Made by a program: the position numbers and the translations under genes. This document shows, in pieces, positions 18,600 through 57,766 of a DNA stretch of 64,000 bases. The notes beneath the pieces were generated by a model. The model did not search any database, had not been told where the DNA came from, and worked only from the letters and a program-made list of their open reading frames with translations. The stretch covers positions 201,128,001 to 201,192,000 of the forward strand of contig OZ024743.1 in NCBI GenBank assembly GCA_964016885.1. The letters are read 5' to 3'. The stretch is from Eledone cirrhosa (taxonomy: Eukaryota). Every line of letters starts with the position of its first letter. The stretch's first letter is position 1.

Positions 18600-19715
18600 A
18601 AGGGAGGTAGGTGTAAAAGCCAAACTCGTTATCTCCAATTCAATATCCATGCCAACCCTTACCTATGGTCATGAATCTTGGGTAATGACTTAAAGAATAT
18701 GATTGCGAATACAAGTGGCCGAAATGAGGCTCCTCCGAAGGGTCTTTGGAGTAACATTATGATCATCATCATCACCGTTTGGCGTCCGTTCTTCCACGCT
18801 AGCATGGGTTAGACGGGTTGTCCTGTTGTGGGCAGTGTCCGGTCAGCTGACCATGTCTTGCTCATACAGGAACTGATTCTGGCTTGATTTCTACAGCTGG
18901 ATGCCCTTCCTGAAACCAACCTCATTTACAGTGAGTGCTAGGTGCTTTTTTTTTCTGTGGCGCCTACACGTCCACTTTACAGTGTGGGCTGGGTTATTTT
19001 TTGGCGTGGCACCTCCACGACCACTTTGCAGTGGAATGATAGAGACCCCAGTCCTATCATCTCATTTCTACAGCTGAGTAAACTGGAGCAATGTGATATA
19101 AAGTGTCTTGCTCAAGGAAACAACACATCACCCGGTCTGAGAATTGAACTCACAATCTTTCGATTGCAAGCCTAATGCTCTAACCACTAAGCTATGCGTC
19201 TTCATTATTCAATAACATTATTCGATAAACTTTAAAGCTTGGAGATCAGAGAGTCACTCCAAGTAGAGCTGCTTAATGACTGAAAGAATATGATTGCGAA
19301 TAGATGCCATCAAAATGGGGTTCCTCCATGTTACTCAATAGATTGTGTAGTTTGTGTAGTTCCTCCATGTTACTCAATAGATTGTGTAGTTTGGAGATCA
19401 GAGAGTCACTCCAGGTAGAGCCACTACTTCTCCGAATTGAGAGATCACAACTCCAATACTATTGGCTTGTGGTTAGAATGTCTCAGGAAAGAATCACAGG
19501 ACAGATTTTACGGGCAAAACCAGTCGGCAGGTGAGCCAGGGGTAGACTCTGAGCAAAATCCTTGGATAACATCCATGACCTTGGCTGATCTCATTTGGGG
19601 ATCTAGCTGGATCAGTTGGAGATGGTTGCTTCTGACAGGACCTGCTGGAAGGGAGTGTTTGAGGACTCTGCCCCCACGACCCTCTCAGGAATAAGTGGTC
19701 AAAGAAGAAGGTTAA
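18600..19715 (+). mobile_element. Second RTE family 3' fragment interrupted by SINE A (18762-19205, minus); relatives at ~34000-34385(+) and ~40980-41225(-)
   Basis: PTLTYGHESWVMT..IQVAEMRLLRR..LEIRESLQVEPLLLRIERSQL; taacattat repeated on both sides of the SINE (likely TSD). Confidence 0.75.
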
Positions 19716-22703: not shown

Positions 22704-22953
22704 ATATTGTTATATTTGGGGAGGGTCATGTTGTCCTAATATTGCCAAAAATAGTAAAACACAGTGATAGTCACTGTAGATGACACAAATGTGTGTTGAA
22801 AGAACTTTGAGAAATTATATTTACATTTGTATTTTTAACTGTTGGTCAATCAATGATAACAATTATAGTGAAGTGAAAACCAAACCAACCAGTGAGTGCG
22901 TTTTAATATTTTTGGCAATATTAAAAGATGACCCTCCCCCAAAATAACAATAT
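22704..22953. mobile_element. MITE with ~55-bp imperfect terminal inverted repeats
   Basis: atattgttatatttggggagggtcat...atgaccctcccccaaaataacaatat. Confidence 0.6.
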
Positions 22954-23732
22954 ACAATTCTATTAATAGAACGATTATCCTGGGATAAATACAGTCAGCC
23001 CCTCCCCTGTTATTAAATATCTATGGCTATGTGTATCCAGCTTAGAACAGTACACTGTATCCTGTTATTAAATATTTATAACTGTGTCCTCAGGTAGGGA
23101 TTCACTAGATCTTATCTTGCTAAATAGAGAGTGAAAATGTTGTAGAACTTTCTCACCACCATATTGTAAGAGCTCTGCATATATGCCATCTACACCTGGA
23201 AACCATCCACTGTTCAACTTTGAAACATCTTTTCTTGCAACACAGTGGTTCTGTGAGAGGTAATTTTACAGGATTTTCAGAGATTAGATTGAGGAAATCC
23301 TCATCGACAGAGGGCTGGTTGAAATGTTCTTGAAAGTGCTCTCACCACCTTCACAAAATACCCTGTAATTCATTAAGTAGCTCCTAGCCATCCCTGCTAT
23401 GAAGCAGTGTCACCAGTTAAGACATACATACATACATACATGATGGCTGCAAACTCTGCTAAGAGTATTGCAATCGACGTAGATATATATACATTTATAT
23501 ATATATAAACAATTAAGTTAAAAATGTACATCTACATATGCATACTGAAATACTAGTGTGTATATGAATACACACACGTATGCATATGTAGGTGTACCAA
23601 GTCTTTCACTGGTCGCTTTACAGTGAGCGGCCCAGCTATTCTGTATGTAAACACACAGAAAAACCGGTTTTTAGAGTCATACTGGTTTTTGGGGGAACAC
23701 CTTCCCCCTATTCTACAGAAAGCCAGACAAGG

Positions 23733-23777
23733 AATATTGAACTAGTTTCGTTGTTGTTACAACTCATCAGCAATATT
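23733..23777 (-). ncRNA. Type I hammerhead ribozyme (minimal)
   Basis: Exact reverse complement of 24288-24332. Confidence 0.85.
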
Positions 23778-24287
23778 TACCTATCTACCGGCCCTTCTGG
23801 AGAATTGTAAAAGCACATATCGTTATATGCTTTTTCTATGAAAATTAGTAGTGGGCAGACTAATTTGCATAGAGTGTGAGTACGCACCGGTTCAGCGGAG
23901 ACGATAAAAACAAATAACGAAACGAAATTAAATTTCGTTTCGTTTGTAACTCACTTTTGTATGACTGACGCTTACTGTAAAGCGACCAGTGAAAGACTTG
24001 GTACACCTACATATGCATACGTGTGTGTATTCATATACACACTAGTATTTCAGTATGCATATGTAGATGTACATTTTTAACTTAATTGTTTAAGCGTCAG
24101 TCATACAAAAGTGAGTTACAAACGAAACGAAATTTAATTTCGTTTCGTTATTTGTTTTTATCGTCTCCGCTGAACCGGTGCGTACTCACACTCTATGCAA
24201 ATTAGTCTGCCCACTACTAATTTTCATAGAAAAAGCATATAACGATATGTGCTTTTACAATTCTCCAGAAGGGCCGGTAGATAGGTA

Positions 24288-24332
24288 AATATTGCTGATG
24301 AGTTGTAACAACAACGAAACTAGTTCAATATT
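24288..24332 (+). ncRNA. Type I hammerhead ribozyme (minimal)
   Basis: aatattg-CTGATGA-gttgt-aaca-acaac-GAAAC-ta-GTT-caatatt: 7-bp helix I, 5-bp helix II, palindromic ACTAGT helix III. Confidence 0.85.
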
Positions 24333-24619
24333 CCTTGTCTGGCTTTCTGTAGAATAGGGGGAAGGTGTTCCCCCAAAAACCAGTATGACTCTAAAAACCG
24401 GTTTGTCTGTGTGTTTACATACAGAATAGCTGGGCCGCTCACTGTAAAGCGACCAGTGAAAGACTTGGTACACCTACATATGCATACGTGTGTGTATTCA
24501 TATACACACTAGTATTTCAGTATGCATATGTAGATGTACATTTTTAACTTAATTGTTTAAGCGTCAGTCATACAAAAGTGAGTTACAAACGAAACGAAAT
24601 TTAATTTCGTTTCGTTATT

Positions 24620-24685
<66 letters not shown>

Positions 24686-25129
24686 TATAAATATGTATAT
24701 AGGAATATTTAATATAGAAATGGCTTCTATAGGACTAGAACTGTTTCATTCGGGAGAAATCAGGAACCTCGGATAAACTTATATATACACACATATATAT
24801 ATATATTATATATATATATTATATATTATGGAATACTGTTGGCTTCTTGCTCACAATAATTTCTATACTTTTCATTTATATATATATTATGTGTGTGCGA
24901 GAGAGAGTAAACATATATATTTATACACACACACACATATATACATACATAAACATACACATGCCTATATATAAATTTCTAAGACCAAAAATTTACAAAA
25001 TTAAATTGTAATCTAACATACACACACAAATGTATCTCCCATCAAAAATAAAAAAGATAAAACATAAAAAAAAAATGAAATATATAAGACAATTATTTAT
25101 AATTTCTTTATATTTCTTATATTTCCTAA

Positions 25130-41704: not shown

Positions 41705-42177
<473 letters not shown>

Positions 42178-55921: not shown

Positions 55922-56777
55922 TGTATAGATAAATTAAGATGTGTCTTCCAATAAATGGCTGAATTGGTGTTTTTCCACAATACCCACAATTTAAATTTCT
56001 AGGCGAGAACAGATAACTGAGATAATAGCAAAAGATATTCATTGAGGAATCCAACTGAAATTCACGACTTGTGCAAAACATTAAAACCAATATCGACTGC
56101 AATTTGAATTTCAAATTTAAAAAACAGAAACAAAGAAGAAATGGTGATAATACTAACAATGTTGTGATGTCAAAAAAAAAAAAATTTAAAAATGAATTAG
56201 AGACAAATCTTTTTGGAAAATTCTTCAACATTTTGAGATTAATTCATTGTATAATGTAGCACACCCTTTTAAGAAATGAATAGAAAAAATATCACAAAAC
56301 CTAAATAGCATGTATTCTAGACAGAGTATTAAAATGAAGGAGACCAGGTTATAAATGTGTACATTACATGTTAAGGTCATTGAAATATTTTTAACAACCA
56401 CTTCATTATGCATTGTTCTAAGAAAAGTGATGGAAATTCTGCTGAAACAAAGCCGCATGGTCTGATCTGGCTTGCATGCAACATGTTGCCTCAGATACCA
56501 ATATTAACAGCATGACTAATTTTTACAAGCCCAACCCACACGAAAAAAAAATTTTAAGGAAATGAAGGCCAAGCCACTACTATGGGGTCTAACCTTATAT
56601 ATATATATATAACAAAGAGGGTGTGGTAAGATACCAGGTGAACCATAATGAACCAGAGTACTCAATATTTAAGGAAGTAGAGTGGATAATATGAAAGGAC
56701 TCAGATCTAGCTGTCGAAACGACCGGAGCTCAGCCGTCGGCGTCCTGACTCTGTTCATATATATATATATATGAGTC

Positions 56778-57036
56778 CCGGGTTCAATCATGGGTAACCA
56801 CAGCAAGCAAGTAAGGTACTCAATACATTAGTAGAGTGTAAACATCAAATTTAATATAGAAATAGTTTCTACAGAGCTAGAACTGTTTCATTAGAAAGAA
56901 ATCATCAGGGCTTTCCTGATGATTTCTTTCGAATGAAACTGTTTTAGTCCTGTAGAAGCCATTTCTATATTAAATATTTATACTCTGCTATATATTGAGT
57001 ACCTCACTTACTGTGATTACCCCCAATTGAATCCGG
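56778..57036. mobile_element. Head-to-head palindromic HHR element; relative at ~24700-24770
   Basis: Arms 56778-56910 / 56914-57036 meet immediately 5' of two divergent CTGATGA cores. Confidence 0.75.
56909..56960 (+). ncRNA. Type I hammerhead ribozyme
   Basis: ggctttc-CTGATGA-tttctttcgaat-GAAAC-tg-ttttagtc-ct-GTA-gaagcc; the opposite arm has an intact ACAG/CTGT helix III. Confidence 0.6.
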
Positions 57037-57766
57037 CATGCTCCGCTGGATGTGTAATAGTAATATACGTGAACGGCAAAGCATAAATGAACTAAGTGAG
57101 AAATTAGGAATAAGGAGGATCAGATGCTGTTTACTCGAGAGAAGATTATGTTGGTATGGTCATGTGATGCGCATGAAAGACGACAGCTGTATAAAAAAGT
57201 GCAGGGCGATCAAAATTGATGGTAGTTACAGAGTAGGCAGACCCAGAAAAACCTGGGACGATCTGATAAATTCCGACCTTACACACTTGCACCTCTCTAA
57301 GACAATGTCACCGGATGGAGATCTTTGGTGCTACGCAGTAATACAGAAGACTCGCCTTGCCTATGTACAAAGCGAAACCTACAGTCAGTAGGCACCTCTT
57401 AACCAAATATACACCCCAATCCACTACCCCGTCCCTATCCTCCCACTCCCACCAACACCACCCTCTCTCTATAAAGTTGATACCACAACATCCAGTCCAA
57501 TTAAATGAGATAATGAGATCGAGATTGTGTAGGTGTCACAACAAAAAAACACACAGTCCACGCTGTCATGTGGCCGTGTAGGTAACACAGTAAAAATTTC
57601 CCAGTTCCACACTGTAAATGTGGTTGGTGTTAGGAAGGGCATCCAGCCGTAGAAAACCTGCCAGATAGTCCTATATGAGCAAGACACGGTCACCCAACCA
57701 ACCTTACCTCAAGTGGGACAACTCCCGTCTAACCCATGCTAGTGTGGAAAATGGACATTAAACGAA

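Follow-up and report, generated by a model that had tools for sequence, protein, structure and literature searches.

Anatomy of the locus and its hammerhead

Positions 23506-24625 of the window, by which we mean the whole 64,000-nt stretch of DNA analysed, are made up entirely of a 467-nt unit, present as two head-to-head arms in a (TA)n-rich setting. The features of the locus are as follows, with positions in the unit numbered u1-u467.

23482..23505, no strand: left target flank, (TA)n-rich
23506..23974, minus strand: left arm, 469 nt = 1.004 units, from u466 through u467 of the next turn
23717..23788, minus strand: second hammerhead, belonging to the left arm; on this strand the cut is predicted after 23740
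23969..23974, no strand: head-to-head junction of two 5'-truncated ends, with imperfect microhomology CGCTTA/CGCTCA
23974..24625, plus strand: right arm, 652 nt = 1.40 units, from u349 through one full turn to u66
24093..24559, plus strand: single 467-nt unit (u1-u467), 38% GC, no long ORF, many hairpins
24277..24348, plus strand: type I hammerhead (Rfam RF02275), predicted cut after 24325 (GUU)
24560..24625, plus strand: "tail", the sequence between start sites A and B, at the outer end of one arm only
24626..24690, no strand: right target flank, (TA)n

An earlier sequence-only reading of this DNA described the left arm as one monomer and the right arm as about 1.4 monomers, with no arm end at the ribozyme cut site, and these measurements are borne out. 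The right arm is 657 nt long when the imperfect 6-nt overlap at 23969-23974 is included. The one-monomer length of the left arm is a property of its free inner end and not a rule, because the lengths of arms that end at site A run from 17 to 14,350 nt. Both outer ends are 3' ends, that of the left arm (23506) lying at u467, which is site A, and that of the right arm (24625) at u66, which is site B. The inverted arms at 23506-23974 and 24091-24559, 469 nt each, differ by a single mismatch (23660/24405), and the locus also contains a 190-nt direct repeat at a spacing of 467. A AACGAAACGAAAT/ATTTCGTTTCGTT hairpin lies within the tail.

The unit is as dense in hairpins as had been claimed, all five of the hairpins named earlier being present in the circular minimum-free-energy structure. 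Folding of the circular monomer, which had been suggested as a check, gives -157.7 kcal/mol compared to -99.3 +/- 6.4 kcal/mol for 60 dinucleotide shuffles (z -9.1), and the structure is branched, not rod-like. The longest stop-free stretch of the circular unit is 72 codons, and the window yields no tblastn match to three Penelope-like element (PLE) proteins. The element is non-coding: the unit carries no RT/GIY-YIG ORF and hence is not an autonomous PLE.

The hammerhead, with its CUGAUGA core at 24295-24301 and GAAA at 24316-24319, matches RF02275 with 38.6 bits (E 3e-6), which is under the gathering score of 52. Stem I is AAUAUUG/CAAUAUU, stem II is GUUGU/ACAAC, and helix III consists of 1 bp (A-U) closed by a palindromic CUAG loop. 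The claim of one intact hammerhead holds for each unit but not for the locus, which has two, one per arm and on opposite strands; the Rfam search places the hammerhead on the plus strand of the unit only and finds none in the other polarity. Across 67 loci the core columns are nearly invariant. Older subfamilies have GAUGU/ACAUC as stem II and GUC as the cut site, which is GUU in the youngest subfamily, and the hammerhead of a sister family has AACGGUG/CAUCGUU, UAGCU/AGCUU and GUA. Both sides have changed in 6/16 stem pairs between subfamilies, a covariation counted on 4 sequences from 2 families and lost when the partners are slid. On this comparative evidence, the hammerhead stems are under compensatory selection. 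By itself, the hammerhead region folds no better than shuffles (z -1.47), and in a fold of two copies the palindrome pairs between the copies without forming a clean double hammerhead.

Hammerheads with a weak palindromic helix III are described in the open texts of PMC4209133 and PMC7229834 as cleaving well only as dimers in tandem RNA, and the 1-bp helix III and palindromic tetraloop seen here resemble those of axolotl HHR_Amex1, which works as a dimer (PMC7229834). Only 1/9 predicted dimers cleaved according to the accessible text of Li, Clavereau and Pollet (bioRxiv 10.64898/2026.07.22.740005). We are nonetheless confident in classifying the unit as a retrozyme with a hammerhead that is predicted to be functional. 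The window locus falls outside what Li et al., in that text, call an "active" retrozyme; other loci of the family fall within it, so this limits the window copy and not the family. With one hammerhead per strand, the window copy probably cannot release a monomer or make a circle, and it is probably a dead-end product.

The retrozyme family and its outer ends

We searched the host genome (3.0 Gb, 1,796 contigs) with exact patterns, for which counts are lower bounds and reversed-pattern controls gave 0. The 19-nt hammerhead core has 5,334 exact matches genome-wide, a 19-mer 3' of the cut has 7,371, and the B end together with its TA junction has 1,954. The genome therefore holds at least 1,954 retrozyme insertions, which are dispersed, flanked by (TA)n and without LTRs. 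The ratio of the two 19-mer counts across the cut (7,371 vs 5,334) was dropped as evidence on the template, being confounded because subfamilies vary in stem II. Copies group at about 99, 94 and 87% identity to the window unit, and contigs from two other organisms contain pieces of the unit at ~95% identity. Tandem arrays with a period of 467 nt reach about 30 units. The unit represents a new family of metazoan non-LTR retrozyme.

Some members of this and a related family are of separate interest. The single arm at C1:5.738-5.753 Mb (L177-L178) is 14.3 kb long and has ~31 units; its shared variants are patterned as in a satellite, and it may be passing from retrozyme to satellite. In the 23-unit insertion at C1:56.39 Mb (L094-L095), a variant recurs with period 3 across units 1-8 of a single arm, and the units are otherwise nearly identical. 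The sister retrozyme family, of about 490-510 nt (L137 7600-9901, L138 2400-2950, L011, L029, L031 and L121), has an internal TA tract of variable length, the GUA cut site and the shared TATGCAAATTAG motif; its architecture is short/long and head-to-head in 2/2 cases.

Three sets of loci were dissected: the 39 best matches, 28 found via the hammerhead core in the first 57 Mb of contig 1, and 90 found via the B end. The last set comprises 88 loci after L176 (same architecture as L175) and L243 (mis-chained by the script, and by eye also A+B) were dropped, and 12 B-selected loci that overlapped the earlier sets were removed. In the 67 loci that were not selected by their ends, 61/116 3' ends lie at B (u58-72), 48/116 at A (u450-467) and 7 elsewhere, sites A and B being about 70 nt apart, and 88/116 of these ends adjoin TA-rich sequence. 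Moreover, every insertion in these loci for which both ends could be classified pairs one A end with one B end (43/43), an outcome with a probability of about 1e-13 (hand arithmetic) if the sites were chosen independently. Among the 88 B-selected loci, the other end is an inverted arm at A in 51, a tiny A remnant in 6 and a different end in 3; the script found no inverted arm in 14, the end is out of view in 14, and a second B occurs in none. Pooling gives 83 AB, 0 AA and 0 BB in 143 loci, although AA insertions could not occur in the set chosen by its B ends.

The inner 5' ends are distributed over the whole unit, and flanks and inner junctions are unique across the 143 loci, with junction offsets in the other loci mostly between -9 and +10 nt. 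There is a weak, post hoc excess of 5' stops near the A-B zone in B-selected arms of >150 nt (35 vs 22.7 expected, p 0.01; 65 vs 56.7 and p 0.15 for all arms), to which we give no weight. The arbitrary permutation put forward in the sequence-only reading thus applies to the inner 5' ends but not to the outer 3' ends, of which 109/116 are fixed at A or B, so the inner junction is the only place where permutation is free. That reading also counted it against itself if other copies were all to share fixed ends attached to an ORF. The ends of other copies are indeed fixed, but they adjoin (TA)n and not an ORF, so the element stays non-coding. The most informative feature of these insertions, which the earlier reading lacked, is a Penelope-type two-site, two-strand insertion signature.

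Template and priming

The ribozyme cut site is crossed by 106/136 arms, and 77/136 are longer than one unit, in agreement with the earlier proposal of reverse transcription past unit length on a circular or multimeric self-cleaving RNA. In these 136 arms the cut site is read through 217 times, and 5 stops fall no more than 5 nt from it, where 3.05 are expected; in 222 arms there are 6 stops at the cut vs 4.9 expected. Because arms cross the cut without an excess of stops, the cleaved linear monomer is ruled out as the usual template. Nine locus-private variants, found in 8/58 informative loci, are fixed in all units of both arms, and at the window locus it is u391 that is private and fixed throughout both arms. 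The arms at C1:30.83 Mb measure 6.9 and 12.9 units; their full units are all identical across both arms (17/17), and this unit is 0.6% from the nearest sampled locus. Given the private variants fixed in every unit and the 17 identical units at one locus, a circle would be favoured over an uncleaved tandem transcript. These indirect genomic signs make a monomer circle the probable main template; multimeric templates and subsequent tandem growth would contribute less.

Some arrays are more complex. Periodic variants are seen in L090, L007 and M094 (period-2 or period-3), and the M177 arm has 19 distinct sequences among its 29 units, so not every array is a simple monomer product. In 24 columns the matching units of both arms differ from the others; the allele concerned is the common one in 21, and these 21/24 columns reflect changes in the other units. 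At L225 (one rare allele) and L187 (two sites), alleles common to the first unit of both arms are absent from later units, which would fit a multimeric template. Assembly polishing could be a source of array homogeneity.

Double priming at A and B might instead take place on an uncleaved linear tandem transcript of a homogeneous source array, with no circle involved. We consider this unlikely, yet it has to be taken seriously. Unprocessed, uncleaved linear RNA is the main substrate of PAc in vitro, and hammerhead mutants are without effect on insertion, in the accessible text of PMC11167929; the weak helix III and the GUU site of the youngest subfamily point the same way, as do the in-register alleles at L225 and L187. 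Within-locus divergence, moreover, is overall no lower than the distance to the nearest other locus (median 0.56% vs 0.46%, within lower in 25/57 loci), a comparison that we regard as uninformative as a test for a circle. An uncleaved template would, however, require multi-kb transcripts that stay uncut across >12 hammerheads and derive from arrays without unit-to-unit variation, as at C1:30.83 Mb. Arm length would also be bounded by the parent array, and arrays would therefore shrink without another amplifier. Locus-wide private variants outnumber in-register ones by 9 to 1-3, and compensatory selection on the hammerhead stems likewise argues against a template that is never cut.

Whatever the template, both the number of priming events and the origin of the inverted arm can be read from the arms. 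Self-priming has been proposed for PLEs from palindromic junctions (PMC3846280, open text), and near-palindromic junctions or templated fillers at L004, L037 and L082 would suit a single priming event followed by fold-back (self-primed copy-back) of the first cDNA. The two arms nevertheless have no sequence in common at L147 (u451-467 vs u28-69), at L152 and in the copy in L137, and the length of one arm does not correlate with that of the other (rho 0.19, p 0.17, n=51). Copy-back is therefore excluded and two priming events are required; fold-back, which also gives no reason for the strict A+B pairing, is in our estimate very improbable as an account of the family. We have little doubt that the insertions arise by two-site double priming of the PLE kind.

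DNA-level rearrangement of a satellite (unequal crossover plus inversion) or an assembly artefact could be held responsible for the periodic, satellite-like variation in the long arrays M177 and M094, and local tandem amplification of pLTRs has been modelled in the available text of bioRxiv 10.64898/2026.07.22.740005. In addition, none of the contigs from four sequencing runs spans the junction of the window locus. Such an origin is hardly credible for at least 1,954 dispersed B/TA junctions, for 143 loci with fixed ends and unique inner junctions and flanks, or for an end rule that is the same in autonomous PLEs. The faintest prospect of all is that an infectious, viroid-like replicon became endogenised and was captured at arbitrary permutations. 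It would match the size, the dense secondary structure (z -9.1) and the hammerhead, but the fold is branched, only one polarity has a hammerhead, the 3' ends are fixed as in PLEs, and the germ line holds thousands of copies that belong to several age classes. Small size, high structure, a hammerhead and a presumed circle are common to the unit and to hammerhead viroids and viroid-like satellite RNAs; unlike these, the unit has no second-polarity ribozyme, is genome-encoded and spreads by retrotransposition. The label "viroid-like" used in the sequence-only reading was thus an overstatement, as nothing points to an infectious or RNA-replicating agent.

We therefore return to double priming on a circle, for which we propose the following steps. 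As in known retrozymes, tandem copies would be transcribed, paired hammerheads would cut out monomers and a host ligase would circularise them. A dimeric PLE RT-endonuclease would then, as PLE biochemistry suggests, bind the A-B region of the RNA and nick both strands of (TA)n, so that one free 3' end would prime at A and the other at B, 70 nt downstream; this step is strongly constrained because of the insertion structures. Both RTs would copy without halting at the ribozyme site, over 0.04 to many turns of the putative circle, stopping nearly at random, and the two cDNA ends would be joined head to head, presumably by an end-joining process that uses short microhomology or adds filler. Unequal crossover may later lengthen long arrays. 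All in all, we judge it quite likely that the element is a non-LTR retrozyme, non-autonomous and moved in trans by a GIY-YIG PLE that primes at both target strands.

Penelope-like elements and known systems

The genome contains 10,595 GIY-YIG candidates, of which 150 were scored. The PLE copies examined encode an RT, a CX4CX2C linker and, at the C terminus, a GIY-YIG domain, and we call them Neptune-type because the linker appears to fit the Neptune/Nematis description in the open text of PMC8557442. In five Neptune-type families the element ends in (TA)n, either at a short site or at a long one. By eye, all 8/8 two-armed copies have one short and one long arm, and the tails of the Neptune families are about 27-65 nt; the L144 tail has an intervening TA run. 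Of the 10,595 candidates, 60 GIY-YIG loci were compared with the unit, and none is similar to it in sequence. Matches between PLEs and the unit in L137, L138 and L121 proved to be retrozyme insertions beside PLEs and not homology.

PLE insertions are marked by a one-sided 30-40-bp tail and an inverted truncated copy (open texts of PMC8557442 and PMC3846280). In the accessible text of PMC11167929, PAc is predicted to be a dimer, and the purified protein nicks and extends both strands, with RT starting at two adjacent internal sites that delimit the tail. The mobiliser acting in trans is most likely a GIY-YIG PLE of a Neptune-type family. A locus at about 41,489,650-41,493,400 of C1 bears on which one: it begins with (TA)n, a retrozyme B arm of 2.7 units, a junction and a 41-nt inverted retrozyme piece, and continues with a 5'-truncated copy of Neptune F139 (94.7% to L139), its short site and (AT)15. 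This is a candidate helper-passenger chimera, a single case, in which two elements together keep the short+long rule. The TA run next to a Neptune end is, however, a frequent site of retrozymes, and for that reason a later deletion between neighbouring insertions is an equally plausible origin. A second candidate, L053, was rejected: its Neptune piece is at 82%, has a stop and lacks a (TA)n end, and we read it as an insertion into an old fragment. Identification of the helper as an F139-like Neptune family is tentative.

Equally tentative is a more specific model in which a dimeric Neptune RT-endonuclease would use both nicked strands and two fixed sites for rolling-circle synthesis on a 467-nt circular RNA. 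The RNA would parasitise the enzyme by its structure and not by pLTR sequence, and might be co-integrated with the helper mRNA in one event, of which the chimera at C1:41.49 Mb would be an example. If this is true, the obligatory short+long rule would be the reason why all endonuclease-containing PLEs have an inverted pLTR and a tail on one side.

Two observations concern the Neptune-type PLEs themselves. L129 2275-5562 is an element with a 1,096-codon open frame and an inverted arm at its 5' end, and is a candidate intact autonomous copy. The 3' regions of L127, L139, L144 and L146 contain hammerhead-like motifs with altered cores, UUGAAAA or UUGAUAA standing for CUGANGA and, in one, GCAA for GAAA, with the palindromic CCGG loop kept.

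Like the metazoan non-LTR retrozymes of coral, mussel and axolotl (PMC7229834), the family consists of a non-coding, low-GC tandem unit with one type I hammerhead, its GC content being below the 45% bound used for this class, and occurs as thousands of dispersed copies in a genome that also has PLEs. Its 467-nt monomer compares with 170-400 nt in PMC7229834 and with 51-972 bp in the accessible text of bioRxiv 10.64898/2026.07.22.740005. Circular RNA has been shown for the retrozymes of PMC7229834 and is putative in the present family. PMC7229834 names PLEs only as a candidate mobiliser, and the words "inverted", "target site" and "microsatellite" do not occur in its main text. With endonuclease-containing PLEs of the Neptune/Naiad type and with PAc, as presented in the open texts of PMC8557442, PMC3846280 and PMC11167929, the insertions share the (TA)n target, 5' truncation, a head-to-head inverted copy, a one-sided tail equal to the distance between start sites, and read-through of the hammerhead. 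The unit differs from these PLEs in having no ORF, in arms that are concatemers of one short unit, in a tail of about 70 nt where the published one is 30-40 bp (PMC8557442), and in being without sequence homology to any PLE examined. Li et al. likewise argue for a PLE-dependent origin or mobilisation of hammerhead tandem repeats. Their evidence is vertebrate co-occurrence and pLTR homology, whereas ours is insertion geometry, and their arrays arise by local pLTR amplification, whereas those described here mostly date from the insertion itself; the accessible text of that preprint uses neither "tail" nor "head-to-head".

Circular templates and mobilisation of retrozymes by PLEs were both proposed earlier (PMC7229834; open text of PMC4209133), and how PLEs make inverted, tailed insertions is called undefined in the open text of PMC8557442. 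Our literature search, which covered open main texts without supplements, found neither PLE tails or head-to-head arms in retrozymes nor this family. Neither the class of element nor the PLE signature is new by itself; the novelty is that both occur together and have been counted, and that a route previously proposed is read from insertion structure. The mobilising enzyme and the circle as template are hypotheses in PMC7229834 and the accessible text of bioRxiv 10.64898/2026.07.22.740005. To these the family brings about 2,000 young insertions, an exception-free A+B rule, sequence-unrelated arms and a candidate helper-passenger chimera, and both questions can be put to a defined experiment, in which the RNA is a 467-nt circle, the two start sites are predicted, the target is (TA)n and the Neptune ORFs are named. 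Of technical interest, too, would be an RT able to write small-circle concatemers into a microsatellite.

Other repeats lie in the window. A small head-to-head palindromic insertion at 56760-57040, beside a TA run, has a minimal hammerhead (CUGAUGA...GAAA) in each arm and probably represents what is left of the terminus of a further PLE family; at 24686-24770, just right of the TA flank of the retrozyme, there is a degraded fragment of this repeat. At 22704-22953 there is a MITE-like element with inverted arms of 29 nt and 27 nt, related pieces of which occur in 31 of the sequences examined and which is very deep in the contigs compared. Finally, tRNA-like Rfam matches above the gathering score at 19137-19194 (minus strand, 33 bits) and 41803-41860 (plus strand, 31 bits) are possibly SINE heads.
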